NCBI GenBank assembly: GCA_964346905.1
Contig: CAYFXH010000001.1
Span: 1,280-65,279, forward strand
DNA from: an uncultured Desulfobacteraceae bacterium
GTDB taxonomy: Bacteria > Desulfobacterota > Syntrophobacteria > BM002
Length of the DNA stretch: 64,000 nucleotides
Reading direction: 5' to 3'
Both the position numbers and the translations under genes were made by a program. The notes under the pieces are model-generated. The model did not search any database and had not been told where the DNA came from. It saw only the letters and a program-made list of their open reading frames with translations. This document shows positions 11,977 through 45,208 of this stretch, piece by piece. Every line of letters begins with the position of its first letter. The first letter of the stretch is position 1.

Positions 11977-13254
11977 TCACTTCCTAAAAGGACATCTCTT
12001 TTGACTAATGTGCTCCCTGACCTCATCTTCAAAGTAGGTAATGAGGCTCTCAACCGGTGATACGGCACCGGGGGCGAATGCACAGTAAGAACTCCAGAGA
12101 TGCTTGCTCATCTGCTGAAGCATTGGTATGAACTCCTCCCTGCCCTCACCTTCTTCCAAACGTCGGAGCAGATCCCGGATGTACGGCAGACCTTCCCGGC
12201 ACGGCGTACACCAACCGCAGGACTCTCGGGCAAAAAACTCGGTTAAGTTCAGGGTGGCGGCAACAAGACACGTCTTCTGGTCGAAGACCATGATTGCACC
12301 GGTACCGAGTCTATGTCCAACTGCGCGCATGGGATCAAAGTCCATTTCAATGTCGTAGAACTCCTTGGGCAGATAGCGGGTGGAAGCGCCGCCCGGCAGA
12401 CAGGCCTTATATTCGGAACCTTCTGGCATCCCGCCAGCATGGACTTCAATGATTTCACTCAGCTGCACTCCCATGGGTAGTTCTACGCAGCCCGGCTTAT
12501 TGACCCTGCCACTGATACAGAAAATCTTGGTACCCGCACCGGTTTCATTTATTGCCAGGCTTTTGTACCACTCAGAGCCGTTTCTGATGATATGCGGTAT
12601 GTTTGCGAGAGTTTCCACGTTCTGAAGTACGGTGGGCTTGTCCCAAAGCCCCTTTTCCGTAGGATAGGGAGGTGGTTGCTGCGGGTTCGGCCTCTTGCCC
12701 ATCAGGGCATTTAATTGAGCCGTGACCTCGCCGCAGATGTATCTACCTCCACTGCGGTGGACAACAATGTCCAGGCTATAGTCGTTTCCCAGGATGTTTT
12801 TTCCCAAAAAGCCTGCCTCTTTGGCAATCTTGATCTCCCTTTCGAGAATTCTTGCCGCGCTCTCGTATTCAGGTCGAATGAAAATAATGCCCTTCTCCGC
12901 CTTTGCCCCGTATCCATCGATGATCATGCCCTCAATAATCATGTGGGGGTCCGTATGGATCAAGACCCGATCTTTGAATGTTCCTGGCTCCATCTCATCG
13001 GCATTACACACGACGTATCTCGGATACGGCGCATCATCCGCTACCGTCATCAACTTCCTTCCGGCTGGAAAGGCGGCGCCACCCCTACCCAGCAGAATGG
13101 CATCCAAGAGTACCTGCTGCACGTCCTTGTAGGAGTAGTTGCGCATTACCTCAGTCAATGCCTGGTAACCGCCGCTCTGCTGATATTCCTCAAGCGTGGC
13201 AATTCGGTCCGGCTTGCGATTTTGAAAGAGAACTTGCGGATAGCTCGGGGCCAT
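11977..13254 (-). CDS. nuoF: NADH-quinone oxidoreductase subunit F (51 kDa, FMN/NADH-binding)
   Basis: 425 aa; GRGGAAFPAGRK (FMN site), ESCGWCTPCREG 4Fe-4S motif. Confidence 0.9.
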   Translation of the reverse strand: MAPSYPQVLFQNRKPDRIATLEEYQQSGGYQALTEVMRNYSYKDVQQVLLDAILLGRGGAAFPAGRKLMTVADDAPYPRYVVCNADEMEPGTFKDRVLIHTDPHMIIEGMIIDGYGAKAEKGIIFIRPEYESAARILEREIKIAKEAGFLGKNILGNDYSLDIVVHRSGGRYICGEVTAQLNALMGKRPNPQQPPPYPTEKGLWDKPTVLQNVETLANIPHIIRNGSEWYKSLAINETGAGTKIFCISGRVNKPGCVELPMGVQLSEIIEVHAGGMPEGSEYKACLPGGASTRYLPKEFYDIEMDFDPMRAVGHRLGTGAIMVFDQKTCLVAATLNLTEFFARESCGWCTPCREGLPYIRDLLRRLEEGEGREEFIPMLQQMSKHLWSSYCAFAPGAVSPVESLITYFEDEVREHISQKRCPFRK

Positions 13255-14014: not shown

Positions 14015-16405
14015 TTATCTATCTATATCCGGCAGAATATAGTCGATGGAACCTACGATGGCGATGAGGTCTGCAATGGTCTCATTCACAGCCATCAAGG
14101 GCATCACCTGCACATTGGCAAATCCGGGTGCACGTATCCTCGTGCGATAGGAGTAGCCGACTCCGTCACTCACCACGTAATAGCCCTGTTCCCCCCGGGG
14201 GATCTCACAGGAACTGTAAGCTTCACCTTTGGGGATTTTGGGTCCACGGGTTACGTTGATAAAATGATGAATTAGGCTCTCTATGTCTTTGAGCATGTCC
14301 CCGCGCTCAGGGATCACATAGCGGTAATCGTCCGTGACGTACCGACCAGCAGGCATCTGCTCTGCGGCCTGTTCAATAATCCTCAAACTCTGGCGCATTT
14401 CTTCCACCCGCAACAGATAACGGGCATAACAATCTCCTTCCGTGGCGGTGGGCACTTCAAACTCAAAGTTCTCGTAACCAGAATATGGAAAATTCTTTCG
14501 CAGATCCCACTCCAGACCGCAGGCACGCAAGTTTGGACCACTCACGCCCCAGTCAATGGAATCTTCCAAGGAGATGCGGCCGATGCCCTGGGTTCGGGCC
14601 TTAAAGATGGCGTTCTTGGTTATGAGTGTTTCGTACTCTTTGAGCCGCTCAGGGAATATTTTGACAAAGTAATCCACCGCTTCTTTCCAACCCTCCGGCA
14701 AGTCAGCGGCAACACCTCCCAACCGGAACCAGGACGGATGCAATCGTCCTCCGGTTATGAGTTCAATAATGTCGAGAATTATCTCCCGTTCGCGGAAGGT
14801 ATAGAAATTGGGGGTCATGGCTCCCACATCGTGGGCCATGGTGGCAAAAAAGACGAGGTGGTTGCTGAGCCGGAAAAACTCGCTGAGCATCACCCGAATA
14901 ACCTGAGCCCGATCAGGAACATTGATATCGGCAAGTGCTTCCACCGCCATTACGTATGGGAGATTATTGGCAGCCCCAGCCAGGTAATCCACTCGATCCG
15001 TGTATGGAATATATTGGTGCCAGGTTTGGCGTTCGCCGATTTTTTCCGCCGCCCGATGGTGGTAGCCGATGTCCATGTCAAGTTCGGTGATCTCTTCACC
15101 TTCAAGTGAGACAATAAAGCGCATCAGGCCGTGGGTACTGACGTGGTGAGGACCGATGTTTAATACCAGCTGGTGCTCCTTTCCATCTCTCCTAATATAG
15201 ATACCACCATCCAGGGGTTGGTGCTGCTGGGCATCGGCCAGGGTATAAGGCTCCATTTCCGTTGCACGGCCAGGATAGCTCTTTCTCAGGGGATGGCCCT
15301 CCCAGTCGTGCGGCATAAGAATGCGACCGAGATTCGGATGACCCTCAAACCGGATCCCAAACATGTCGTAGACTTCCCGTTCATACCAGCTTGCAGACGG
15401 CCAGATATCGGTGACACTTTTGGTAACCGGTTCCTCACCGTTTAGGGCAACCTTTACACGCAACCGGCAGGCGGGCTCGAATGAGAGCAGGTGATAGACC
15501 AGGGTGTAGTCCGAATAACCAGCTCGCTCCCTCCGGGCGGATTCATCAATTGCGGTGAGATCGTCCAAGCGTCGGTACCTGGGAGTCGCTTCTCCTTTGA
15601 GAAAACGCAGAACATCCTTAAACCGTTCGTGCGGTACCTGGAATGTGGGCATGTCCGAGGTCTGTGGCGTCTGCTGGATATCGTCCCCAAACCGCTCTTG
15701 CAAAACATTTGCGAGGCTCGTATCATCCTCACTCAATTCTATTCGCCGCGGCCGGGGTGTCCACATGAGATCGGAGCGGCTGTCCCAAAATTTCGGTGGA
15801 GCCACTGAAGTCCCTCTGATGGCAACACCTTGCATGCCCGGGCCACGCGGGTCTCGAGACTTTGTCTGGCCATCGACGAGAATGGGCGTCTGAGTGCCCT
15901 GGGTACCCCCTGGGAGGTGGAAAATGGCACGAGTCGGTCGTTCTTCCGAGACTATTTTTTCTTGCAAAAGCACAAGCCCTTGGAGTACAGCCTCAGGTCT
16001 GGGTGGGCAGCCAGGAATATAGACATCCACCGGCAATATCTGATCCACCCCCTGCACTACGCTATAGGCGTCATACATGCCACCACAGTTGGAGCACGAT
16101 CCCATAGAGATGACCCACTTGGGTTCCGCCATCTGCTCGTAAAGCCGCAAAACAACAGGGGCAATCTTCTTGAAAACAGTACCGGATATTATTAAGAGAT
16201 CCGCCTGCCGGGGTGAAGGCCGGAGCACCTCCGCCCCGAAGCGGGCCATGTCGTACCGGGCGGTAAAAGCGGTAGCCTCCTCCACGAAGCAGCAGGAAAG
16301 CCCAAAAAACATGGGCCAGAGACTGTACTTACGGGCCCAGTTTATCAGGAAATCGGCCCCCTGCAGCAACCGGTTGTTCAATGCTTTTTCGACGTTGGCC
16401 CCCAC
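14015..16405 (-). CDS. nuoBCD: Fused NADH-quinone oxidoreductase subunits B, C and D in one ORF
   Basis: 796 aa single ORF. Residues ~1-170 are NuoB ([14 protein letters not shown]...GCPPRPE), then a ~100-aa linker, then NuoC ([19 protein letters not shown]), then NuoD ([10 protein letters not shown]...[10 protein letters not shown]). Confidence 0.85.
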
Positions 16406-27088: not shown

Positions 27089-28480
27089 TCACCTCCTTCT
27101 TATCAGTGTTCTCGCGAACGCCCTCCATAGATCAAACCGCATCGGCAAGCTAATAGCTGTTCCGAAAATATTCTTGAAGCGTTCGTTTCCCGTGAACATG
27201 TTCCACAAGACTGAACTCAATCTTTTGCGATCCTTAGGATCGCTCTGTTCTTCCCGAACAATTTGTAGCATCCATCTCGTAAGCAGTCCGTAATTCTTGT
27301 ACAGATCGGCAAGGAAATATAGGTAAGTCCCGAAATAGTTGTCCACAATAATGTTTTTGTAGACTGGATAGTAATGTTCCTGAAAGTCCTGCTTGCTCAC
27401 CCCGTGAAGAACCGCCGTGTTTGCTGCAGCTTTTCCCATGATGTAGGCGGCTCCAAGACCATCTTTAAAAAGGCGCGTCGACCCGGCATCACCACACATG
27501 ACCACCCTGTCCGTAAACGGTATTTTGGGGGCTTTGATATTCATCTTAGGCAGACAGCGACAACCAAACTTGTAGCTCACTGACTTCGGCAGGACTTCTT
27601 TCACCACCGGGTAGTCAAGAAAGTCTGTTATTGTATTGACATTCAAATCATGCCCCAGAATGCATAGGGTGAGATATGTGACTTTGGGAACTATGGCCGC
27701 GAATTTCAGATTCTTTATCGGCAGGAGAAAGATGTGAATGGAATTGCCAAAATGCTCAGTGATAATTTCTTCGTCGAAGCTCAATTCAGCAATAGCCGCC
27801 TTGATAGTCCGAGGCTCTTCATACCCGAATCCTATATCCTGAAAAATGCCCGACTTGCCACTGTTTACCCCCACGGCCCCGACAACAAGGTCAGCTTGCT
27901 CTTTCCTCCCGCCCTGGGAAAACAAAATCGGCTTGCCATTCTTGTATTCAATTCCTTGAATCTTGAGAGGGATGTGTGCTGCCCCCTCCTTTACAGCCTG
28001 ACCCAGAAGAAAATCATCGAAACTCTCCTTGTCTTCCCCGATAATACCCTTTGGTCCGCCTCCCCTATAAACTGCGGCTATGGTGTTTTCAAAAGATGGA
28101 GTAGCAATAGAAACGCTTCCCTTCGTGGTATGGAGTTGATAGGAATTAATACCCTTCCACACGACCGAATCCGGCAAGTTGATCCCCTCAACTGCAAGCG
28201 TCTGGACGAGCAGTTCGGATATTATGCCTGCGCATTTATTACAGCCCGCAGGGCCATCCTTGGTGAAGTTCTTGGGATCATAGATGGTAATATTGAGTTT
28301 CTTGTCGAGCATCTTGGCCAGTTTCAGGGCAAAGATACTGAAGAAGGACCCCGTCGGCCCGCCCCCTACAACAGCAATCCTCGAGCCGTCCTCCAGGGCA
28401 TAGGGACCACTTTCGGCTAGAGCCTGCTTGGCCACGTAAGCTGCAAAATCAGATTTTGAGTGATCCTGGCGCGATAACAT
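27089..28480 (-). CDS. FAD-dependent oxidoreductase (geranylgeranyl-reductase-like flavoprotein family)
   Basis: Dinucleotide-binding motif RIAVVGGGPTGSFFS near N-terminus; ORF track extends to 28555 (GTG), start uncertain. Confidence 0.55.
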   Translation of the reverse strand: MLSRQDHSKSDFAAYVAKQALAESGPYALEDGSRIAVVGGGPTGSFFSIFALKLAKMLDKKLNITIYDPKNFTKDGPAGCNKCAGIISELLVQTLAVEGINLPDSVVWKGINSYQLHTTKGSVSIATPSFENTIAAVYRGGGPKGIIGEDKESFDDFLLGQAVKEGAAHIPLKIQGIEYKNGKPILFSQGGRKEQADLVVGAVGVNSGKSGIFQDIGFGYEEPRTIKAAIAELSFDEEIITEHFGNSIHIFLLPIKNLKFAAIVPKVTYLTLCILGHDLNVNTITDFLDYPVVKEVLPKSVSYKFGCRCLPKMNIKAPKIPFTDRVVMCGDAGSTRLFKDGLGAAYIMGKAAANTAVLHGVSKQDFQEHYYPVYKNIIVDNYFGTYLYFLADLYKNYGLLTRWMLQIVREEQSDPKDRKRLSSVLWNMFTGNERFKNIFGTAISLPMRFDLWRAFARTLIRRR

Positions 28481-28749
28481 AAACTCGGTTAAAATACGAT
28501 GAAGACACAAAAATTTTATAATAGGATAGAAAACTCTCGGTTTGAAGTTTACCACAATGTGCCATGTCCGTCAAGCTAGATGCATGCCAGGAGTTACCCT
28601 GAAAGTAACCGGTTTATTGCAAGCTCGTCCCTAAATTTTTACAATAAAATTTGCCCATAAACAAAGAATATGATCGCGCGAAGAATTACTTTTCACAATT
28701 TTTTGCTGATATAGCTAGGATGCTTTTGAGCTTGAGTGGAGGTGTTCGA

Positions 28750-35498: not shown

Positions 35499-35927
35499 AT
35501 GAATGAAAAAACTGATATCATGAAAATATTTGATTACGACACGAATTTTCAAGCCATAATGAGGTATTTGCTGGAGAATGCAATGGAACACTCTTTCGAC
35601 GCGATTATGATAACAAAGGCAGAACCCGGCTACCCGGTTATTTATATCAACGATGCCTTTACCGTACTCACTGGCTACAGCGCCGAGGAGATAATCGGTA
35701 AGTCACCAGCTGTTTTGCAAGGGCCCAAGACGGATCGTGCTGTATTGGATCGACTGGAGCGAGAATTATCAGAGGGTCGGCTTTTCCACGGTGAAGCGAT
35801 TAATTATCGCAAAGATGGTTCTGAATTTGTGATGGAGTGGAAGATCGTCCCCATCAAAAACAAAAGAGAAGAAACCTCCCATTATCTTGCCATTCAACGA
35901 GACGTTACCAAGTTGAGAAATCATTAG
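35499..35927 (+). CDS. Stand-alone PAS domain protein, LOV-like but lacking the adduct-forming cysteine
   Basis: 142 aa; DAIMITKAEPGYPVIYINDAFTVLTGYSAEEIIGKSPAVLQGPKTD aligns to the LOV core (GKNCRFLQGPETD), with the Cys position occupied by Pro. Confidence 0.6.
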   Translation: MNEKTDIMKIFDYDTNFQAIMRYLLENAMEHSFDAIMITKAEPGYPVIYINDAFTVLTGYSAEEIIGKSPAVLQGPKTDRAVLDRLERELSEGRLFHGEAINYRKDGSEFVMEWKIVPIKNKREETSHYLAIQRDVTKLRNH

Positions 35928-35935
35928 GTAAATGC

Positions 35936-37042
35936 ATGGAAGACGAACTGAGACAAGTTTTAAGTTACTATGACCTGGGTGAACCCAGAAGCATTCAACG
36001 GGTCGAGTGTGGCTTTGTCAACGACAACTGGGTGCTTGAAACAACCCGTGGACAATACTTTTTGAAGCGCCGCCATACTGACTTGCGAAATCCAGAAGTT
36101 ATCTGCTTCCAGCATGACCTCATGCAGCATCTCAGGCAGGCGGAATTCCCGGCTCCAGCCATTCTGCCCACCATAAGCGGAGAAACTTTTTTGGTGCATG
36201 CTGGCGAGTTCTACGAGATTCAGGAGTATATCAACGGGGCACCATGCGAACACTTTTCTCCACCGCATATACACGTAGCCGCTCTGATGCTTGGCCACTA
36301 CCATGCTTGCGTTCGGGACTTCGTCCCCAGACCCCTGTGTGATTTTGGGGATCTCTACAGTCCTGCTATCCTCATAAACAACCTGACCAGACTATCGGAG
36401 GCTTGGGCCCTCCATCGGGACCCTACCCTGAGGCAAATTGTCCATCAGTTGGAGACCCAGGCGGAAGAACTAGCGGCTCTTTTCACCGAGCATGGAGAGC
36501 TCCCCCATCTGGTAATCCACGGTGACTATCACGCGGGCAACCTTCTGTTCCAAGGTGACCGTATCATTGGAGTGGTCGACTATGACAAGTCTTGCTACCA
36601 GCCTCGGGTTGTAGAGTTGGCCGAAGCCTTGATTTACTTTGCCTCGACCCGGCCAGGTCATCTAAAGCACCTGGTGTATCTCGGTTTTCTTGAGTGGGGT
36701 ACGTTCATGACATTCATGTACCATTATGGTTGTGGACTCAGCTCCTTTGCCAAGGAACCTGTCCAGTACGACCACCGTCCGGAGGCAGATCGGCCCAGCG
36801 ATCTAGCCTGTCAGGCTGGGGACGTTTTTCTCAAGGCAAACGAAGTGTACGCCCTGCCGGACTACATCCGTTGCATCTGGCTTTCGGTCTCGCTCCAACG
36901 GCTGTTGGAAAAAACCTCCCGCTCACCAGTAGCTCTGGAAGCCCTGCGAGAGGTACTGGCACTGGGGCAATGGGCCGCCACCAATAGGGAACGGATTATC
37001 CACTCCGCGCTAGAAAAAATATCTGACGTGGCAGAGCGTTAG
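35936..37042 (+). CDS. Phosphotransferase-family (APH/choline-kinase-like) protein
   Basis: Start Met34 of ORF 35837..37042, 8 nt after the PAS stop. Brenner motif VIHGDYHAGNLLF and DYD catalytic/metal motif. Confidence 0.7.
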   Translation: MEDELRQVLSYYDLGEPRSIQRVECGFVNDNWVLETTRGQYFLKRRHTDLRNPEVICFQHDLMQHLRQAEFPAPAILPTISGETFLVHAGEFYEIQEYINGAPCEHFSPPHIHVAALMLGHYHACVRDFVPRPLCDFGDLYSPAILINNLTRLSEAWALHRDPTLRQIVHQLETQAEELAALFTEHGELPHLVIHGDYHAGNLLFQGDRIIGVVDYDKSCYQPRVVELAEALIYFASTRPGHLKHLVYLGFLEWGTFMTFMYHYGCGLSSFAKEPVQYDHRPEADRPSDLACQAGDVFLKANEVYALPDYIRCIWLSVSLQRLLEKTSRSPVALEALREVLALGQWAATNRERIIHSALEKISDVAER

Positions 37043-37091: not shown

Positions 37092-37691
37092 ATGATAAAA
37101 GCTATCATTTTCGATTTCGGCCGGGTCATCTCGACCCAAAAGCCGCCATCCCTCTTCAGCGGCTATGAAAAGGATTTGGGACTCCCCCCCGGAACGCTCA
37201 ACCCTATTATGTTCGCTAGCCGGGCCTGGCAAGATACCTTGATTGGCCACAAGACCATTGAAGAGTTCTGGGACGAAATTGGGCCCAAGCTTGGACTGAA
37301 TACTCCCGAGGAAATTGAGGAGTTCCGCCGTCGGTACCGGGCTGATGAAGCGGTTAACGAGGGTGTGCTGAATCTACTCCATCGGCTGCACGGCCATTAC
37401 AAGCTGGCGGTACTCTCCAATGCACCGCCTGGCCTGGGCCAATGGCTGGGCGACTGGGGGATGCTCCATCTGTTCGATGTGCTGTTCTGCTCCGGAGACG
37501 AAGGCGTGGTAAAGCCAGAGCCGGCTGCTTTTACTATCACCCTAGAACGACTCGGCGTGGAGCCCAATGAAGCAGTGTTCATTGACGATACACTGGAACA
37601 CGTGGAGGCAGCCAGGACACTGGGGCTGCACGGAATACTGTTCACCACCGCAGAAGCTCTGGAGGCGGAATTAGATGGCTTACTTGCTTGA
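37092..37691 (+). CDS. HAD-superfamily hydrolase (subfamily IA)
   Basis: 199 aa; motif I IKAIIFDFGRV (DxD-type), SNAPP motif II, GDE...D motif IV region. Confidence 0.75.
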   Translation: MIKAIIFDFGRVISTQKPPSLFSGYEKDLGLPPGTLNPIMFASRAWQDTLIGHKTIEEFWDEIGPKLGLNTPEEIEEFRRRYRADEAVNEGVLNLLHRLHGHYKLAVLSNAPPGLGQWLGDWGMLHLFDVLFCSGDEGVVKPEPAAFTITLERLGVEPNEAVFIDDTLEHVEAARTLGLHGILFTTAEALEAELDGLLA

Positions 37692-37712: not shown

Positions 37713-38363
37713 ATGGCGACCGTTGTGAGCAATGACCACATTAAAATTGATCGGTTAGAATTGGGGCCGTTCGGCACTAATGGGTACATCTTAACCTGCC
37801 AAAAGACACAAGAGAGTGTGGTGATTGACGCCCCCGGCCAAGTCGACAGAGTCCTGGAAGCGCTGGAGGATACACACCCCCAATACATCCTAATTACTCA
37901 TGACCATTTTGATCATGTGGGTGGTCTTTCCCGGTTGAAATCAGCCTTGAACGTTCCCGTCGCTGCCCACCCTGCAGATGGTGACGGGCTTCCCCTACCT
38001 GCGGATATTCTCCTACATGACGGTGAGGTACTATCCTTTGGAGCCAGAGAGCTTACGGTGTTGCACACACCGGGCCACACTCTGGGAAGCATATGCTTGC
38101 TGACCGGGAATTACTTGATTGCGGGGGATACGTTATTTCCGGGAGGTCCGGGTAAAACCCAATCACCCGCAGACTTCCGGCAGATTATTGAATCCATAAC
38201 CCAGAAGATTTTCACATTGCCGGACAACACCCACGTGTATCCCGGACACGGGGAAGCAACAACGGTCAAGGAGGCAAAAAAACAGTACGAGGTTTTCTCA
38301 ACCCGACCGCACGATCCGGATCTTTGCGGGGATGTGGTTTGGGATAAATCGCAGAGCGCATAG
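37713..38363 (+). CDS. MBL-fold metallo-hydrolase
   Basis: 216 aa; ITHDHFDHVGG (HxHxDH) and downstream His/Asp ligands. Confidence 0.8.
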   Translation: MATVVSNDHIKIDRLELGPFGTNGYILTCQKTQESVVIDAPGQVDRVLEALEDTHPQYILITHDHFDHVGGLSRLKSALNVPVAAHPADGDGLPLPADILLHDGEVLSFGARELTVLHTPGHTLGSICLLTGNYLIAGDTLFPGGPGKTQSPADFRQIIESITQKIFTLPDNTHVYPGHGEATTVKEAKKQYEVFSTRPHDPDLCGDVVWDKSQSA

Positions 38364-38498
38364 CGCAGAGCGTATATTCAAAAACTGCAAAGTTATTTTA
38401 AATATCGCAAACAAATGCTAGTCGTTGAATTTACCAGAATGATTTTAGTCTAGCCGTTTTTCTAAACGCTATGCGCTTTGCGCTCTGCGCTATGCGAG
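38350..38498. repeat. Inverted heptamer repeat (cgcagagcgcatagcgcagagcg ... cgctatgcgctttgcgctctgcgctatgcg) bracketing the convergent gene ends
   Basis: Arms at 38350-38373 and 38467-38498 are near-perfect reverse complements; candidate bidirectional terminator/REP element. Confidence 0.5.
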
Positions 38499-38499
38499 C

Positions 38500-39195
38500 T
38501 TACCAACCTATTACCACTCGGTGAAAACCTTCCGCCAGTTCAAAATCCTCCCCTTCAGCCATCTCCCTGCACCGCTCTCTCAGCCAATCTTCAGGGTCCG
38601 GATTGGGGAATCCCTGTACCTGGCTCTGGTGGCAACGTAGGGCCGCAATTTTAAGATCAAAGGTATCGGTGATGTCCGAGCGATAGTTAATGTCTTCCGC
38701 CGCCCAGAATAAGATCTCATCTACATTGTGAGGCTCCAAACCTTCCTCTAACAAATCAGGGTAGGCAAGATGATCCCGAGAGTACGGGAAAACTGCATCG
38801 AGAGTAACCTGCCCGGCAATGCGATGGTCGCGATGCCAGAGGTAACGACGGTAGGGATCCGAGGTCACCACGATCCTGGGCTGGTACATGCGTATAAAGC
38901 GAACGATCTGCTTACGAAATTCCGGCGTGTCTTCCAACTCCTGATCCGGGTATCCCAGGAATATTACTTCTCGGACCCCAAGGATCTTGGCCGCAGCCTG
39001 TTGCTCCTTTTTTCTGATTTCGGCCAATTGTTCAGGTTTGAGGCTCCGGTCGCTGGTTCCCTTGTCGCCATTGGTGCAGACAACGTAGACAACCTGCTTT
39101 CCTTCTCTGGTCCAGCGCGCTACTGTTCCTGCCACCCCGAATTCGGCGTCATCCGGATGAGCTGTTACCACCAGTACGTCCGTTGCTTTCGTCAC
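38500..39195 (-). CDS. PIG-L/LmbE-family N-acetylglucosaminyl deacetylase (MshB/BshB-like)
   Basis: Start chosen at GTG (Val71 of ORF 38500..39405) with AGGAGG RBS 6 nt upstream, giving 232 aa; signature VLVVTAHPDDAEFGVAGT and downstream His/Asp. Confidence 0.75.
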   Translation of the reverse strand: MTKATDVLVVTAHPDDAEFGVAGTVARWTREGKQVVYVVCTNGDKGTSDRSLKPEQLAEIRKKEQQAAAKILGVREVIFLGYPDQELEDTPEFRKQIVRFIRMYQPRIVVTSDPYRRYLWHRDHRIAGQVTLDAVFPYSRDHLAYPDLLEEGLEPHNVDEILFWAAEDINYRSDITDTFDLKIAALRCHQSQVQGFPNPDPEDWLRERCREMAEGEDFELAEGFHRVVIGW

Positions 39196-39250
39196 AACGA
39201 ACCTCCTAAAAAGTCGAGACTCGAGTAGTTCAATGAAATACCGAATGATG

Positions 39251-40459
39251 TTACCTGAGTATGGCTGTGTATTCTTCCAGCATAGCGGACGCCACATTTG
39301 CCCAGCTAAATTGGAGGACCGACGCGCGAATTGCTTCAGCGGATAGTCCGTTGGAGTTCGAGATAAAAGCTTCGATACCGTTTGCCAGTAAACGGGGAGA
39401 ACCATTGGTCACCAGATGTCCTGTCTCACCTTGGCGGAGGATGCTCTCCATAGCCCCCACCTTCGTTGCCACCACCGGTGTGCCAGAGGCGAGCGATTCC
39501 AAGGCCACCAGCCCAAAGCTCTCGTAGTAAGAGGGCACAACCAAGACATCTGCGGCATTGTAGTACGGCGGCAGGTTATCCTGTTCGATCCTTCCCACAA
39601 AGGTCACGGAATCCTGAATACCCAACTTCCAGGATAATCTTTGGAGGTTTTGCGACTCCGGTGTATGATGGCCATCGCCACCGACAATTACCAGTCGAAG
39701 CCTTTGATGATTCAGAAGGCGGGCCACGGCCTCAAGCAATCGGTCTATTCCCTTCAATGGCGCAAATCTGCCCACGAACAACACAATCGACTCATCCTCC
39801 GCAAAACCCAACTGCTCTCGCGCCCTCGCTTTGTCCCATGGGCGGAAAAGATCCAGGTTGACACCACACGGTACAACGCCAATTGTCGCAGAGGACGCCC
39901 CATAGTGTTGCATTAGATGGTCTCTTTCTCTGTGGGTGGCGACGAGAATGCGGTTACAATTATGTGCCAAATGCTGTTCGGTGGCTGTACGCAGTTCGGG
40001 TTCTTTCTCCGCACCAACTGTACTGTTCTTTACCGCGCCAACAGTATGGAACATGAAAAGATGAGGGACTTCCCAGCGTTCATGGGCCCATTTCCCCACC
40101 CGACCGGAGAGCCAGTAGTTACTATGTACAAGGTCATAGTCCAACGACTCGTATGTTCTAAATCTTTCCAGCTCCCGGAAAAAATCAGGCAGATAGGGAT
40201 AAAGTGCCAATTTGTTCATATCACCGTTGTTCCCGGCTTTTAGATGAATGAGTCGGACGTTCTCACATAGTTCAACTCTCTGAGTATCAGCTGCATTACT
40301 GAGACGCGTATAAATGTCGACCAAATGGCCGCGGTTTCCCAGCTCCCGGGCAAGCTCACGGACATAGACACTCATGCCTCCGGTGTCTTTTGTCCCTAAT
40401 TCTCCTAGCGGACTTGAATGAACGCTCAACATTGCAATTCTTAACTGTTCTGCTTCCAC
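39251..40459 (-). CDS. GT4 glycosyltransferase of the MshA/BshA (N-acetylglucosaminyl-transferase) family
   Basis: 402 aa; IAMLSVHSSPLGELGTKDTGGMSVYV, DLVHSNYWLSG, HTVGAVKNS, PSYYESFGLVALESLASGTPVVA align block-for-block with Corynebacterium MshA (from memory). Confidence 0.75.
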   Translation of the reverse strand: MEAEQLRIAMLSVHSSPLGELGTKDTGGMSVYVRELARELGNRGHLVDIYTRLSNAADTQRVELCENVRLIHLKAGNNGDMNKLALYPYLPDFFRELERFRTYESLDYDLVHSNYWLSGRVGKWAHERWEVPHLFMFHTVGAVKNSTVGAEKEPELRTATEQHLAHNCNRILVATHRERDHLMQHYGASSATIGVVPCGVNLDLFRPWDKARAREQLGFAEDESIVLFVGRFAPLKGIDRLLEAVARLLNHQRLRLVIVGGDGHHTPESQNLQRLSWKLGIQDSVTFVGRIEQDNLPPYYNAADVLVVPSYYESFGLVALESLASGTPVVATKVGAMESILRQGETGHLVTNGSPRLLANGIEAFISNSNGLSAEAIRASVLQFSWANVASAMLEEYTAILR

Positions 40460-40503
40460 GTGCGCTACCTCTCGATTCAGTGCTTGTTTACCGTTCAGAT
40501 TGT

Positions 40504-41481
40504 TCAGAGTTTAATCTGGCATCTATACAAGGTAACAGGTTTACCTCCCAACCGATGTTTGTAATCCTCTGCGCCTTTGAGAAAATCGTACCTCTCTTTT
40601 CCTCTCTGAATGCTTTCTTGAATGGTGAATACCTTACTGAGCAGACCCACGTTCAGCGAACTGAATCTGCCGTCATACCCATTGTTGTAAAGATATATCG
40701 TCGAATTATAATCAAAACACATCACCGCGGCTGCAGGTGTCCCGTCAAGTTCGAGGATAAACAGTTGCAATAGCTTGAGCGTTGCCATTGTCTCGGCCAG
40801 TGACCGAAAAAAAGAAGCCATCTGACTAGTCATAAAAGCTGCCTTATCGGCTCGACTCAATCCAAACAGCGCCAAAAAGGTGTCCATTTCCTCCAGGACT
40901 TCTCTTACATCCTCCACAACCCGATATCTGATGTCTGCAGCCTCATCTAATCTCCTGAGTTTTCGTCTCACTTCGTGCCGCTGTTTTCCGGTCAACATGT
41001 GCAAGAATTCATCCCAGCTTGCCGGCAACTCTAACTCCAGGGTAACATCCTCGGGATCGCAAAAAACCTCGCACTCCAGCGCTTTGGCCACGTTGACAAA
41101 ATCGGTGAGCACTTTAGAGTCGGCACGTACGGAGTTCAGATCCAGGTGAGTGATACCCTGCTCCCTTAAATGATTGATGAGAATCTCAGAAAACTCCCCT
41201 ACCCTCCCAGGGGTGACGATGAAATCTTGGTAATCGCAAACATCAGGATCGCCCATGAAGCGGGCCTCTCTTCCTTCCAGCAAAAACGGCGCGATACCGA
41301 TCACTTCTTCCCCGTCTTTCACCGCGTAGAGGGAGGGAGCCAATTCAGCACTGAATACGTTCCACCATACCTCCAGCCAGCCGGGCAAAACAAAGAGACA
41401 ATCCCACTCCAGGACATATCCCGGATCTAGCCAGTAAGAGGCGAGATTTTCAAAGGTCTCTTCAGTTACGGTATATGCCAT
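40504..41481 (-). CDS. FemAB/CelD-like tandem-GNAT acyltransferase (Acetyltransf_6-like)
   Basis: Start Met27 of ORF 40504..41559 (GAAGGTGA RBS). ~326 aa with two GNAT-like halves; architecture typical of aminoacyl-tRNA-dependent transferases (FemX/FemAB) and CelD; no precise motif verified. Confidence 0.5.
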   Translation of the reverse strand: MAYTVTEETFENLASYWLDPGYVLEWDCLFVLPGWLEVWWNVFSAELAPSLYAVKDGEEVIGIAPFLLEGREARFMGDPDVCDYQDFIVTPGRVGEFSEILINHLREQGITHLDLNSVRADSKVLTDFVNVAKALECEVFCDPEDVTLELELPASWDEFLHMLTGKQRHEVRRKLRRLDEAADIRYRVVEDVREVLEEMDTFLALFGLSRADKAAFMTSQMASFFRSLAETMATLKLLQLFILELDGTPAAAVMCFDYNSTIYLYNNGYDGRFSSLNVGLLSKVFTIQESIQRGKERYDFLKGAEDYKHRLGGKPVTLYRCQIKL

Positions 41482-41574
41482 GGTCACCTTCGGAGTATTG
41501 GTACTGTAACGATTGCGGATTGCGGAATTTGGTGATTTCCCTGCTTTGCAATCCTTCATGCTGAAATCTGTAAT

Positions 41575-42006
41575 CTACAAGCTGACCTTGCCGCCGCTTC
41601 TAAAATCTCCACCACCCGTACCAAGTCTTCCAAGGGAGCTGCTATTGGCTCTCCCGTCAACAAATGATCGGCTAGGTTCCGATGAAAAAGATAATGCTCT
41701 CGTTTGGGCAATGCCAGTTTTTGGGTGATAAGTAGTACCTACTGGGATCGCATCATGGGAATGCCAGTAGCCACAGGGGTGCGCAAAACTGCCCACGAAG
41801 GTCTCCATGTAAAAGAGGTCGCCAATCAGCCCATGAGCGAGTGCTTGTTTAATCGCCAAGTAGTCCACGTCCCACCGCCGGTTTTGGTGGCAGCTCAGAT
41901 GCACCCGCTGTTTTTTGGCCATCTCCACCATGGCGGCTGTTTCCTTTTGGCTCAATGCCAGGGGCTTTTCACAGACCACATGCTTCCCTGCTGCCATCAT
42001 TTGCAA
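41575..42006 (-). pseudogene. Gfo/Idh/MocA-family oxidoreductase remnant (N-terminal Rossmann region and C-terminal domain missing)
   Basis: ORF begins at AAGKHVVCEKPLAL, the motif that normally lies ~90 aa into Gfo/Idh/MocA proteins. Only 75 nt separate it from the upstream gene. C-terminal 40 aa are low-complexity, suggesting frameshift. Confidence 0.5.
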
Positions 42007-42080
42007 AGATAAGTTTGCATGGGAGTTCGGTGGGGTGGCTAATCATTTTCCTTTAACCCTCACAGTTCCTGGTTTCTTGC

Positions 42081-43334
42081 CTATGACTTCAGTCGCCACT
42101 GCGCGCCATCTCCAGTATCCTCAACTATTATGTCTGCTCGCTGGAGGCTGTCGCGGATGACGTCGGCTTCTTGCCATTGTTTCTTTTGTCGGAACTCCTG
42201 GCGCAACTTGAGTAGCTCTTCCACGAGAGGGGCAAGACAATCAGCCCTATTTTTTGGAGAAGCCTCAAGTCTCATTCCTAAAATGACTATCAAATCTCGA
42301 AAAATTTCTTTAGCTTGGGAAATGAATTCCTCGTTTTCATGATCCTGCTTGGCTCTCCAGATAACCCGATCAAGCTCCAAAAGAGCGTTGGTGGCTTCTT
42401 TCGGTTCGTCTTTTTCGAGGCCGAGCCGAAAGGTGTTTTCGATTGCATGAATGGTATCCCAGAAGGACTCTGCATCAACATCAGAGGTAGGTTTGAAAAT
42501 CGCTTGCTTTGGGGTTGTCGGTTTCCACTCCTTACCCATCTCTCCTCCACGGAGAACATCAAGAGAAAAACGGTCACCCTTTTCAAAGACCAACTCAGCT
42601 CCCCGACAACGTAGGGTCGCAGTGCCGAGTCCCTTAATGAGAGCTTCTTCTTTTTCAAAATCAATGAGGCAGGCCGTATGTTCATCCAAGCCAAAAATGG
42701 ATACATCCTTGGGCAAGAGGGACTCGAGCTTGCGAAAGCGCGATTCACCCATGAAACAGAAACGGGTGTCGTGAGTCCCACCTTCAGCGTTGTTCCAATG
42801 GGGAATCACCACCAGATTGAAGCCGAAGTGGTGGAGTATATTCATCCCCTCCACCCAATGCAGGTCTTCGCCCACCTTGTAAATCTCATAGACTGGGAGA
42901 GTGAAGCGTCCCAGGGTCAGGGCGGCAGCACTGGCAGCCACTAGGCAACCGCCGGATTCGATCTGCTTTATCAAGATTTCAGGTACGGGTGTTTGCTGCC
43001 ACTGGCGAAGGGCATACGTCGGACTTCCTGGGCCAATCAGAATAAAGTCGGCCTCCCGCAGCGTATGAAAGGCCTGCTCGGCTTCGTATGGTGTGATCCT
43101 CTCGTTTGACTGAAACGAGGCTGTTGACATGGGTTGTTGAACATGGATACGAAAATAATCCAAGGCTCTCTTGGATATCTGATCAACATTAAGCTGAAAG
43201 CCAGCCGGCGTATCGAGAAATACGGCTCGGGGATCTTGAGCAAATCCCGCCAGTAACTCCTTGTGAACTTCAACCATGGTTGCAGTGAGTTCACCTGAGC
43301 CCATGAGGGCGATAATTCCTTTCCTTGATGACAC
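42081..43334 (-). CDS. Fusion protein: peptidase S51/cyanophycinase-like (class I GATase-like) N-terminal domain + C-terminal tRNA-anticodon-binding region of cysteinyl-tRNA synthetase
   Basis: 417 aa. N-terminal IALMGSGE...FLDTPAGF...ILIGPGSPTYALR...GGCLVAASAAALTLG resembles the S51 fold. C-terminal ...LRQEFRQKKQWQEADVIRDSLQRADIIVEDTGDGAQWRLKS aligns with E. coli CysRS C-terminus ...[39 protein letters not shown] (from memory). No HIGH or KMSKS motifs present. Confidence 0.6.
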   Translation of the reverse strand: MSSRKGIIALMGSGELTATMVEVHKELLAGFAQDPRAVFLDTPAGFQLNVDQISKRALDYFRIHVQQPMSTASFQSNERITPYEAEQAFHTLREADFILIGPGSPTYALRQWQQTPVPEILIKQIESGGCLVAASAAALTLGRFTLPVYEIYKVGEDLHWVEGMNILHHFGFNLVVIPHWNNAEGGTHDTRFCFMGESRFRKLESLLPKDVSIFGLDEHTACLIDFEKEEALIKGLGTATLRCRGAELVFEKGDRFSLDVLRGGEMGKEWKPTTPKQAIFKPTSDVDAESFWDTIHAIENTFRLGLEKDEPKEATNALLELDRVIWRAKQDHENEEFISQAKEIFRDLIVILGMRLEASPKNRADCLAPLVEELLKLRQEFRQKKQWQEADVIRDSLQRADIIVEDTGDGAQWRLKS

Positions 43335-43749
43335 GCCGAACTTCTTTCCAGTGAGCCACAGAGGCCACTGATCATTGGATTGAGTTCAGAGACTGCTGAG
43401 CTACCGTCTCCATTGATAATCAAAACCGACACCCAACTGGATAAGATAAGCCACTTTTGTTAACTAGTAAAGGTCACACCATGTTCTTTGCTGAAGAGAG
43501 AGCTTCACTTTGCGCATTGGACGGGATGCTTCCATGTTTAGTAGTCTCTGCCAAGATCTATCCCAGACGGCAATCGCTGGGGGTACAGAGGACGTCTTGA
43601 TCACACACGAAGAGCTCGGCAGGTAAGATGAGACCCGTGCAACGTGTTTCCGGTTGGCACACCCCTTGCTTCTGTATATGTATTGCAATCTGTGGCAACC
43701 AGTAGTCTGCACCATTCACTGGTCTACTTTGGTGAAGCGAGAACGAGAA

Positions 43750-43980
43750 ATGACGTACATTTGCATAAAATGTAGAAAAACCTGGGTCAGTGGAACTCAT
43801 ACTGATCAGTATTCCGGGGGATTGTGCCAAGCGTGCACTACGGAGTACATTAGAGAGAGGCAAAAAAGCCACGGGTTTCATGATTGCTTCAAACGGGCAG
43901 TTGAAGTCTGTTCAAGAGACGAATGCAGTTACTGGCTCTTGTGCAACAGAGATCTTATGGAGAAGAGGGGATGTGCGTGA
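43750..43980 (+). CDS. Small Cys-rich (9 Cys / 76 aa) putative zinc-ribbon protein
   Basis: Internal Met of ORF 43654..43980; CIKC...CQAC...HDC...C...DEC pattern; weak RBS, so uncertain. Confidence 0.25.
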   Translation: MTYICIKCRKTWVSGTHTDQYSGGLCQACTTEYIRERQKSHGFHDCFKRAVEVCSRDECSYWLLCNRDLMEKRGCA

Positions 43981-44107
43981 ACCTGTGACTTTCTACTCAA
44001 CCTCTAAATCGGTCTCTTGGTACCGGTAACGTTAAGGGGCAAAACATACGGCAAGAGGGACAGCCATGAAGGTATACCTGATCAATGGTATATGTTCATG
44101 ACCGTCC

Positions 44108-45208
44108 CTACTTCGAGGCCAGCATGTAACCTTTCCGGGCCATGTGGCTGGTTAGCAGACCGTCTAGACCGTTGTAAAACACCAGGAGAATGAGGGCAAC
44201 GATAAGACTCTCCTGCTCTCCGCTCAAAAACGCCAATATCACCACCGCCCAAATCACCATCGAGCCCAATAATTCCAGACTGCCTAACAACGTGTGACCG
44301 AGATACATGTCTCTCAATCCGGGCAATAACAAAGATCTCAAAAAAGCTGTCTTTGGGTTTTTAAACTCTGCCTGGCATTTTGGGCATGCAAGCAAGTTTT
44401 TCGCAAGCGGCACGTAACAGGAGGGACAGAGGTCTTCAACCGCAGCTTCCGCTGTCTTTGCGGCCTTGAAAAGACGCTGCCTTTCCCGAACAAATTGTTG
44501 AAAATCTTTCGCCATGTACCGCTTCATCCCGGTAAAGATACGACGTTTGCCTTTCTGCCGGTGGAGTACGAGACTCGTGCCGAACAGACCCGTCCCAACT
44601 TTGCTGATGGTCTCATAGGGTATCTGGAAAAAGTAGTGGGTCGGCTTTGAAATTTTTTGATTTACATTGATGAACAGGAGTCTCTGACTGGTGCCCACCA
44701 CTGCATAGTGATTGTACAGCGTCGTCAAGTAGCCGTTTCCAAAAATAATCTCTGATGGGTAATAGGCCGTTGCTTTACCAATTCGCATGGCTTGCTCATC
44801 GCTTAGTAGCATTTTATCCAGCGTTCCATGCACCGCCTTAAGAATTTTGACCTTAAACGTGTTTCTTCTGGTCTTATAGGCTCCTTTTTTACTGGGGGTA
44901 ATCATTCCATCAAGCTTCAGTTTTTCAGAGGTCAGATTCTGCAACTCCGGGTATTCAGTGATGAGAGTTAATTCAGACTCAGACCGATCTCTTTCCTGGG
45001 GAATTTGGTAGTTTGCATCATTGGACGGAGGTGTTACAGCAGCAAAGTCGGACACCATCTGGGCATCCAGAATCATGTCTTGCTCCCCATGCGGCTCAAC
45101 GAGAAATTTTCCTCCACATCTTTTGCAACTGGCTTGAACGGGCTTTTCCGGGATTTTGTCGCTTGCAACCTTGTACTGAGTGTTACAGATGGGACAAACA
45201 ATCTGCAT
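44108..45208 (-). CDS. Membrane protein with N-terminal MJ0042-type zinc ribbon, central bacterial PH-like domain, second CxxC...CxxC pair and C-terminal TM helices
   Basis: MQIVCPICNTQYKV...CKRCGGKF; later CPSCYVPLAKNLLACPKCQAEF; hydrophobic C-terminus. Confidence 0.5.
   Translation of the reverse strand: MQIVCPICNTQYKVASDKIPEKPVQASCKRCGGKFLVEPHGEQDMILDAQMVSDFAAVTPPSNDANYQIPQERDRSESELTLITEYPELQNLTSEKLKLDGMITPSKKGAYKTRRNTFKVKILKAVHGTLDKMLLSDEQAMRIGKATAYYPSEIIFGNGYLTTLYNHYAVVGTSQRLLFINVNQKISKPTHYFFQIPYETISKVGTGLFGTSLVLHRQKGKRRIFTGMKRYMAKDFQQFVRERQRLFKAAKTAEAAVEDLCPSCYVPLAKNLLACPKCQAEFKNPKTAFLRSLLLPGLRDMYLGHTLLGSLELLGSMVIWAVVILAFLSGEQESLIVALILLVFYNGLDGLLTSHMARKGYMLASK

Follow-up and report, generated by a model that had tools for sequence, protein, structure and literature searches.

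The bacterial chromosome segment analysed here, 64,000 nucleotides from an uncultured Desulfobacteraceae bacterium (GenBank assembly GCA_964346905.1, contig CAYFXH010000001.1; hereafter the window), carries a gene for a protein in which a domain of peptidase family S51 is joined to the anticodon-binding end of cysteinyl-tRNA synthetase (CysRS). We confirm that this protein, called the fusion below, is a genuine two-domain enzyme, widespread and, it appears, not yet characterised; its gene stands first in a conserved operon that resembles those for mycothiol biosynthesis. We consider it probable that Cys-tRNA(Cys) is the source of cysteine for the cysteine-adding stage of a mycothiol-like pathway, and that the fusion works on the aminoacyl end of this tRNA. 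More tentatively, and with less than even confidence, we propose that the fusion is itself a Cys-tRNA(Cys)-dependent cysteinyl transacylase of this pathway, with the S51 domain as an acyl-enzyme catalyst.

A first-pass annotation, made from the sequence alone, had likened the C-terminal region to the tRNA-binding part of CysRS, and every comparison made here agrees. Pfam CysS_C (PF23493) matches residues 367-414 with E=3.7e-10 and 40.2 bits, above the curated cut-off of 23. The NCBIfam cysS model (TIGR00435) matches residues 313-414 through its positions 362-464 of 466 only, with E=2e-8 and 33.8 bits against a cut-off of 340. A phmmer search of PDB sequences returned the C-termini of four solved CysRS proteins, 3tqo, 8qhp and 1li5/1u0b among them, and aligned residues 313-416 of the fusion to residues 354-461 of the E. 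coli enzyme (1li5/1u0b). The Foldseek comparison that the annotation had proposed for this half matched 1u0b_B, the CysRS of a tRNA complex, with E=5.6e-4 and 29% identity. The preceding helical region shows a weak DALR_2 match (Pfam, E=0.25) and is helical at residues 291-358 in the predicted structure. The annotation had also stated that the synthetase core is missing: Pfam and NCBIfam scans found no Rossmann or tRNA-synt_1e domain and no other nucleotide-binding or adenylate-forming synthetase domain in the fusion, and the HIGH and KMSKS strings are absent from its translation. The missing catalytic core rules out a CysRS, and the lack of an adenylation domain rules out an MshC or BshC.

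The N-terminal domain has the S51 alpha/beta fold, which is class I glutamine-amidotransferase-like, in line with the earlier proposal. Pfam Peptidase_S51 (PF03575) covers residues 9-225 with E=8.4e-5 and 22.8 bits, just below its cut-off of 23.9, and the NCBIfam PepE model scores 14.8 bits against a cut-off of 156. The "cyanophycinase-like exopeptidase" 6nqc was matched in the phmmer search with E=2.4e-5. Since these scores lie under the Pfam and NCBIfam thresholds, we assign the domain by its fold and predicted triad to a divergent S51 subfamily. Ser135, His179 and Glu218, the putative triad, align with the Ser-His-Glu family positions in the "CSAGA", "IPHFN" and "GIDE" motifs of 6nqc. The segment GGCLVAASAAA, previously suspected to be a nucleophile elbow, indeed holds Ser135, aligned with the serine of "GCSAGA" in 6nqc. 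An AlphaFold2 model built with 49 homologues, with a mean predicted local distance difference test score (pLDDT) of 78, comprises an alpha/beta domain (residues 1-265), a disordered stretch (267-288), four long helices (291-399) and a terminal beta-hairpin. The N-terminus, MSSRKGIIALMGSGE, is common to the fusion and its homologues, which share the same start.

Conservation was evaluated in an alignment of 112 full-length representatives that are 34-67% identical to the query. The putative triad is nearly invariant (Ser135 99%, His179 100%, Glu218 96%). Among the C-terminal 127 residues only seven positions are at least 90% conserved, namely R378 (97%), R382 (96%), D391 (97%), R394 (97%), L397 (92%), D406 (96%) and W413 (94%); position 387 is aromatic in 96% of the sequences and tryptophan in 52%. 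With a constant offset of 45 residues, R382, W387, D391 and R394 map onto R427, W432, D436 and R439 of E. coli CysRS, which contact G34/C35 of tRNA(Cys) in 1U0B and were targeted in a 2026 engineering study (PMC13449415). Three of these four documented contacts are among the seven most conserved of the 127 positions (hypergeometric P=4e-4), and at the aligned positions the fusion appears to have kept the anticodon-contact residues of CysRS. The linker is the least conserved part, with a mean column identity of 0.26 against 0.63-0.75 in the domains. In the S51 domain, about 50 positions are conserved at 90% or more. A 12-residue insertion (N182-C193) directly after the catalytic His, absent from the standalone S51 paralogue that accompanies the fusion in relatives, is itself highly conserved (N182 98%, G185 99%, H188 91%, D189 100%, T190 98%, R191 93%, C193 93%). 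These positions and the insertion exceed the needs of a simple hydrolase. Both domains thus look functional, with strong selection at exactly the functional positions, and the fusion is predicted both to bind tRNA and to be catalytically active.

The architecture is far beyond chance, because the full-length two-domain protein recurs in thousands of database proteins. A word-indexed protein search gave at least 8,000 candidates, the best 120 of which are full-length matches at 68-77% identity, and an exhaustive search of 50%-identity representatives gave 461 clusters at E<=1e-30, with full-length matches at identities as low as about 34%. When one genome of each GTDB species was scanned, at least 589 relatives were confirmed; the best 80 of these belong to metagenome-assembled genomes of Desulfobacterota (Syntrophobacterales, Desulfobacterales, Desulfosarcina), Nitrospirota/Thermodesulfovibrionia, Dissulfurispiraceae, Aminicenantes and a few others. 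The family occurs also in some Actinomycetota. Its members are named "peptidase E", "cyanophycinase-like exopeptidase", "hypothetical protein" or "CysS/YqeB C-terminal domain-containing protein", and we found no description of the family, or of a linkage between Fem and mycothiol genes, in searches of the full-text literature. The link to YqeB suggested by the last of these names was dropped, as E. coli YqeB gave no CysS_C match at E<0.1. CysS_C was matched in eight of ten divergent members scanned, including the Actinomycetota branch of 497-526 residues; the possibility that variant members carry the anticodon domain of a different aminoacyl-tRNA synthetase (aaRS) was discarded, as no other tRNA-binding domain was found in these ten.

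Two variants were noted in passing. The Actinomycetota (Acidimicrobiales) branch (P0283, 526 residues; loci L088/L089) has an N-terminal extension and a longer linker, and lies in a context of ClpS, DUF2017, tRNA-Glu and MurT/GatD with no GT4, PIG-L or Fem genes nearby. A 322-residue neighbour was considered there as a Fem-like protein and rejected (hhalign probability 0.05), and the tRNA-Glu after the actinobacterial gene looks incidental. In P0255 (448 residues), S51 and CysS_C are followed by a GT2 glycosyltransferase domain, which may be due to the fusion of two genes or to faulty gene calling where the contig ends.

The gene context, which the first-pass annotation did not cover, holds most of the functional information. 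Neighbours were counted by tblastn over fusion-seeded loci, using those 58 species loci in which the downstream sequence extended to 7.5 kb or more. A GNAT gene accompanies the fusion in 41 of these, a GT4 glycosyltransferase in 39, a PIG-L deacetylase in 36, a pair of Gfo/Idh/MocA oxidoreductase (GFO) genes, ThuA-GFO and GFO, in 29, an MBL-fold hydrolase in 14 and a HAD phosphatase in 13; six have none of these. This linkage is conserved across phyla. The GT4 of the window matches the mycothiol MshA model over its full length (E=1.3e-109; 366.8 bits, cut-off 462.5), and the best NCBIfam matches of the PIG-L protein are BshB1, BshB2, Mca and MshB. The MBL gene adjoins PIG-L in 14 of the 58 species loci and in many metagenome loci. 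The fusion thus shares with MshC and BshC the linkage to genes for MshA/BshA-type GT4 enzymes and MshB/BshB-type deacetylases, a functional analogy and not a homology of catalytic domains.

Further steps of a mycothiol-like pathway are encoded in some of the clusters. In locus L090, whose fusion is 44% identical to that of the window, a standalone S51 gene, the fusion, GNAT, GT4 and PIG-L are followed on the opposite strand by a His_Phos phosphatase and myo-inositol-1-phosphate synthase (Ino1). Within 10 kb of the fusion, the synthase is found in at least five loci and a phosphatase in at least six, and this adjacency supports an inositol-phosphate acceptor for the MshA-like GT4. At 15 loci, mostly with no fusion nearby, a tandem Acetyltransf_1 GNAT of 308-310 residues, for which mycothiol synthase MshD is the top-scoring family (E=3e-29 to 5e-30, under the family cut-off), stands between GT4 and PIG-L. 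The idea that the MshD-like gene and the fusion exclude each other was rejected, as they occur together in four loci (L035, L040, L042, L065). In L065 there are separate MshA-, MshB- and MshD-like genes, MshC is the sole Msh step without a gene, and the conserved genes that correspond to no Msh gene encode the fusion, its standalone S51 paralogue and the Fem-fold protein. By sequence similarity, the clusters hold counterparts of Ino1, MshA, a phosphatase, MshB and sometimes MshD, together with a glyoxalase-II-like enzyme, a profile that points to a cysteinyl-glucosaminyl-inositol thiol like mycothiol.

The first intact gene downstream of the fusion codes for a GNAT with the fold of the Fem-type aminoacyl-tRNA-dependent transferases. 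A profile search of this protein against PDB sequences found nothing, and its relationship to Fem is visible at the fold level only. No MshC/BshC-type gene is present among the cluster genes examined. This arrangement suggests that a Fem-fold aminoacyl-tRNA transferase and a protein with a tRNA(Cys) anticodon reader occupy the place of the ATP-dependent cysteine ligase. The first-pass annotation had supposed that the protein might recruit Cys-tRNA(Cys) for a non-ribosomal reaction or hydrolyse an aminoacyl bond; this is compatible with all our findings, and is narrowed by the operon context to a thiol pathway like that of mycothiol.

In the following scheme we infer that the fusion binds tRNA, uses the charged form and transfers the aminoacyl group instead of hydrolysing its bond, and we likewise infer the acceptor and the product. 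The MshA-like GT4 would join GlcNAc to inositol phosphate, supplied by Ino1 where its gene is linked, and the phosphatase and PIG-L deacetylase would then expose the glucosamine amine. Cysteine would be added without an ATP-dependent ligase, from the Cys-tRNA(Cys) made by the housekeeping CysRS. The C-terminal CysRS module of the fusion would dock on the GCA anticodon and the anticodon stem, and, through the flexible linker of about 25 residues, the S51 domain could extend to the 3' end of that tRNA. There, Ser135, activated by His179 and Glu218, would attack the cysteinyl ester to form a cysteinyl-enzyme, which would be resolved to an amide by an amine of the pathway, that of GlcN-inositol or of an intermediate already bearing cysteine. 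S51 enzymes such as PepE and cyanophycinase cleave after an N-terminal aminoacyl residue via an acyl-enzyme, and a cysteinyl ester has the geometry of such substrates. The adjacent Fem-fold enzyme would be a second aminoacyl-tRNA-dependent transferase acting at the same stage.

Several observations weigh against this assignment. To our knowledge, no S51 enzyme uses aminoacyl-tRNA or acts as a transferase. The AlphaFold2 model gives no arrangement of the domains on tRNA, no tRNA(Cys) gene was found in the window or in about 104 loci, and the lack of an MshC/BshC-type ATP-dependent ligase holds for the cluster genes examined, no genome-wide search having been made. A metagenome scan seeded with the GNAT gave a reverse view of the cluster, in which GT4 follows the GNAT in 32 of the 33 loci with enough downstream sequence, a nearly inseparable pair and a tighter link than that of the fusion to GT4. 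The fusion lies upstream of the GNAT in 14 of the 24 loci with at least 4.6 kb of upstream sequence; in the other 10 there is no fusion within 5 kb upstream, although one of these, locus L129, has it downstream. At least four loci without the fusion (L140, L151, L152, L171) hold an apparently complete set of Fem, MshA-like, MshD-like and MshB-like genes, and clusters of this kind, with an MBL gene, have no fusion within 5.5-8 kb. Moreover, Fem-like enzymes are recognised aminoacyl-tRNA-dependent transferases, and the acylation of amino sugars from aminoacyl-tRNA is well precedented for their fold (Orf11/Sbb17), as Orf11 uses Gly-tRNA(Gly) to attach glycine to streptothrisamine, an amino-sugar intermediate (PMC12945691). 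The Fem-fold neighbour might therefore be the true MshC substitute, transferring cysteine from Cys-tRNA(Cys) to the glucosamine amine, so that each of the four mycothiol steps would have its gene. In that case the fusion would be a partner, specific for tRNA(Cys) but dispensable, that, by analogy with freestanding editing domains carrying an aaRS anticodon-binding domain, hands over tRNA(Cys), provides specificity or hydrolyses the aminoacyl end as a deacylase or proofreader. The fusion-less clusters favour this arrangement unless their fusion is encoded elsewhere in the genome, as happens in L002, L012 and L022. Known Fem-type enzymes need no tRNA-presenting partner, however, and CysRS is accurate, with no known need for tRNA(Cys) editing. 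A pure adaptor would not retain the triad at 96-100%, nor some 50 near-invariant S51 residues, and at some loci, including those of the Actinomycetota branch, the fusion is present with no Fem-like gene nearby, which argues for a function of its own. We regard this leading alternative, in which the fusion assists, as somewhat unlikely, and the main uncertainty is the division of work between the fusion and its Fem-fold neighbour.

A degradative role is suggested by the genes that travel with the fusion apart from the biosynthetic ones. A standalone S51 paralogue stands directly upstream of it in 22 of 66 species loci, though not in the window. This is a canonical protein of about 240 residues (6nqc, E=4e-20), 21% identical to the N-terminal domain of the fusion, and it may be an Mca-like amidase. 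The order S51 paralogue, fusion, ThuA-GFO, GFO is frequent, and this block stands alone in L002, L012, L019, L022, L027 and L029; its occurrence with no biosynthetic genes in L002, L012 and L022 could mark a turnover module and counts against biosynthetic transfer. The GFO proteins resemble inositol 2-dehydrogenase and glycoside/disaccharide 3-dehydrogenases (NCBIfam). All S51 enzymes characterised so far hydrolyse amides of the N-terminal aminoacyl type, and mycothiol is regarded as a cysteine reservoir. The S51 domain of the fusion could accordingly act like Mca on the Cys-glucosamine amide of the thiol or its conjugates, releasing cysteine from the thiol pool, with the CysRS module coupling this amidase to the state of tRNA(Cys), for example by sensing the uncharged form in cysteine starvation, and with the standalone S51 protein and the two sugar/inositol dehydrogenases completing a recycling module. 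We find this improbable: an anticodon-binding domain alone cannot tell charged from uncharged tRNA, we know of no precedent for a tRNA-gated amidase, and a degradative enzyme at the head of a biosynthetic operon is less parsimonious. The window itself has no GFO genes, yet its intact, conserved fusion lies directly upstream of the biosynthetic genes.

Two further readings fit the data poorly. The database names and the borderline Pfam S51 score would agree with a conventional S51 exopeptidase that has aspartyl dipeptides or cyanophycin-like compounds as substrates, and in which the C-terminal domain is re-used for oligomerisation or non-tRNA binding and the linkage reflects a shared regulon. 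This is very unlikely, and the outcome that the first-pass annotation had named as fatal to its proposal, an unrelated C-terminal coiled coil on a conventional peptidase E with no tRNA link, is not what we observed. CysS_C is matched above its curated cut-off, the residues equivalent to the G34/C35 contacts are kept and the anticodon-reading positions are the most conserved of the domain, and the flanking gene has an aminoacyl-tRNA-dependent transferase fold. A 48-residue CysS_C segment gave ten matches in a plasmid collection, four in cysS and six with no listed gene, so that cysS was the only annotated gene matched. No cyanophycin synthetase or peptide-transport genes were found in the contexts examined. 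Least probable of all is a freestanding trans-editing factor for wrongly acylated tRNA(Cys), such as O-phosphoseryl-tRNA(Cys) in SepRS/SepCysS lineages, unrelated to the thiol pathway. A hydrolase joined to an aaRS anticodon domain without the synthetase core does parallel freestanding editing proteins, and S51 enzymes favour acidic N-terminal residues. SepRS/SepCysS are reported to occur in some uncultured anaerobic bacteria (PMC5424206). The loci inspected contained neither SepRS nor SepCysS genes. Such a factor would leave the linkage to GT4, PIG-L, the Fem-like gene and MBL across phyla unexplained.

The features described above are listed in Table 1 with their positions.

Table 1. Features of the fusion gene, of its neighbours in the window and of related genes at other loci. 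Positions are those of the window unless a locus (L number) is given; residues are those of the fusion.
Feature	Position	Strand	Remarks
S51-CysS_C fusion gene	42081..43334	minus	GTG start; 417 residues plus stop; from the open reading frame (ORF) list, with full-length homologues at 34-77% identity
S51 (PepE/cyanophycinase-like) domain	42540..43334	minus	residues 1-265
Putative triad codons in S51 domain	Ser135 42930-42932; His179 42798-42800; Glu218 42681-42683	minus	
Linker, variable, predicted disordered	42465..42539	minus	residues 266-290; pLDDT <50 for residues 267-288
Helical region, DALR_2-like part of CysRS helical bundle	42255..42464	minus	residues 291-360; TIGR00435 and 1li5 alignments begin at residue 313
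CysRS anticodon-binding domain (CysS_C)	42084..42254	minus	residues 361-417
Equivalents of E. coli anticodon contacts	R382 42189-42191; W387 42174-42176; D391 42162-42164; R394 42153-42155	minus	
Pseudogene remnant of ThuA-Gfo/Idh/MocA oxidoreductase	41580..42042	minus	tblastn, two frames
Fem/MprF-fold GNAT (Acetyltransf_6, FemAB_like)	40504..41481	minus	325 residues; mechanical ORF extends to 41559; predicted aminoacyl-tRNA-dependent transferase
GT4 glycosyltransferase, MshA-like	39251..40459	minus	best NCBIfam match TIGR03449 MshA
PIG-L de-N-acetylase, MshB/BshB-like	38500..39405	minus	Pfam PIG-L E=1e-36, domain from residue 78 of the ORF
MBL-fold hydrolase, glyoxalase-II-like	37713..38363	plus	candidate thiol-ester hydrolase; best NCBIfam match GSH_gloB, E=2.3e-28
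HAD phosphatase	37092..37691	plus	candidate for sugar-phosphate/inositol-phosphate phosphatase step; Pfam, NCBIfam
APH-family kinase	35837..37042	plus	Pfam APH E=9e-28
Standalone S51 paralogue	L090 9223-9945		also in L022, L035, L037, L042, L048, L050, L051, L053, L054, L056, L057, L065, L067, L069, L071, L072, L074, L076, L083-L085, L087
myo-Inositol-1-phosphate synthase and His_Phos_1 phosphatase	L090 14200-15917	minus	likewise by the cluster in L057, L061, L067, L077
MshD-like tandem GNAT	L171 10227-11153; L152 10315-11247	minus	13 other loci

Between the fusion and the GNAT, the window retains the remnant of an oxidoreductase gene, which matches residues 274-378 (80% identity) and 496-546 (84%) of the 557-residue ThuA-GFO protein of locus L001. 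Two intact oxidoreductase genes occupy this place in relatives, and the second GFO gene is entirely missing. Therefore, the genome of the window has lost about 2.6 kb, comprising two oxidoreductase genes, from an otherwise conserved cluster in which the fusion is intact. The start of the GNAT is most likely Met27 (41481), as in a 100%-identical database protein of 325 residues. Because the listed PIG-L ORF overlaps the GT4 gene by 155 nucleotides, its true start is probably near 39200; homologues have 231-240 residues. The APH kinase is loosely associated, being found in closest relatives only (present in L005; 1 of 58 loci). No Rfam matches were obtained in the window, and a promoter and terminator scan of 38000-44200 gave no more than chance. 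Elsewhere, the window consists of ordinary chromosomal DNA, including an operon for complex I and the genes of a 2-oxoglutarate dehydrogenase complex.

Some further observations concern the window and other loci. The gene directly upstream of the fusion (44108-45208, minus strand) encodes 366 residues with only an N-terminal zinc-ribbon match, and tblastn found no match to it near the fusion in any of 87 loci. In the nuo operon, together with NuoF (11977-13254) and a NuoG-like gene (9215-11725), a single ORF of 796 residues (14015-16405, minus strand) joins the NuoB (20 kDa), NuoC (30 kDa) and NuoD (49 kDa) domains. An ORF of 488 residues (27089-28555, minus strand) has no Pfam match at E<=1e-5. 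A thioredoxin-reductase/AhpF-like flavoprotein gene adjoins the Fem-like gene in L171 (6645-7559, minus strand) and could encode a thiol-disulfide reductase, and a dual-specificity/PTP-like phosphatase gene lies just upstream of the Fem-like gene in L152 (7421-7963, plus strand). A tRNA-Val(GAC) gene a few kb upstream of the cluster in one clade (L033, L036, L039, L044, L060, L109, L111, L118) was set aside as probably plain synteny.

Among known systems, the nearest conceptual relatives of the fusion are MshC and the freestanding editing domains with an aaRS anticodon-binding domain. MshC (L-cysteine:GlcN-inositol ligase, a CysRS paralogue) is, like the fusion, derived from CysRS and placed by MshA-, MshB- and MshD-type genes at a cysteine-adding step, which for the fusion is predicted. 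MshC retains the Rossmann core, whereas the fusion is the complementary fragment, with the anticodon-binding end only and an unrelated catalytic fold. Freestanding editing and tRNA-binding proteins (archaeal ThrRS-ed with its anticodon-binding domain, AlaX, YbaK/ProX) associate a hydrolytic domain, directed at the aminoacyl end of a single tRNA species, with an aaRS module for tRNA recognition and have no synthetase site; unlike the fusion, they use other catalytic folds, serve translational quality control and belong to no metabolite-biosynthesis operon. Compared to the S51 family (the aspartyl dipeptidase PepE, the cyanophycinases CphB/CphE, 6nqc), the fusion has the motif A-A-S-A-A in place of G-x-S-A-G, adds the C-terminal CysRS module and the post-His insertion, and lies in no cyanophycin or peptide context. 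The Fem-type enzymes (FemX/FemA, MprF/L-PGS, Orf11/Sbb17) are similar in that an aminoacyl-tRNA donor, predicted for the fusion, acylates the amine of a sugar-containing metabolite, but they have the GNAT fold, which the fusion lacks, and, as far as is known, read the acceptor end rather than the anticodon. MshC acts independently of tRNA, with cysteine activated by ATP (PMC2922099). The aaRS-like transferases AcmF (AlaRS-like) and SbzA (IleRS-like) re-use an aaRS-derived architecture for aminoacyl delivery to a small molecule; SbzA retains the canonical IleRS architecture (PMC12945691), whereas the fusion keeps the anticodon end only, on a peptidase fold. The aminoacyl-tRNA-dependent classes of this 2026 review are aaRS-like, GNAT, CDPS and PEARL, with no S51 class (PMC12945691), and the fusion, consisting of S51 and CysS_C only, contains none of these catalytic folds.

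The union of S51 with the CysRS anticodon module might thus represent a previously unrecognised class of aminoacyl-tRNA-dependent transferase, and the fusion, its Fem-fold neighbour or both might replace MshC/BshC in the mycothiol-type thiol synthesis of hundreds of anaerobic lineages (Desulfobacterota, Nitrospirota and others), a proposal that we hold with more reserve than the transacylase assignment itself. If true, the few aminoacyl-tRNA-dependent enzymes would gain a new fold or, failing that, a new arrangement of two proteins. The CysRS gene would also have been "split" both ways, giving MshC, a core without the anticodon domain, and the fusion family, an anticodon domain without the core. 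With the operon context, an open suggestion becomes a specific, testable hypothesis, namely that anaerobes have a mycothiol-like pathway in which cysteinylation depends on tRNA. Two cysteinyl-glucosamine redox buffers are known, mycothiol and bacillithiol, and each receives its cysteine from a dedicated ligase. Our data point to a third solution for this step, the Cys-tRNA(Cys) pool of translation, widespread in strictly anaerobic sulfate reducers, syntrophs and Nitrospirota, which would constitute a direct metabolic link between translation and redox homeostasis.

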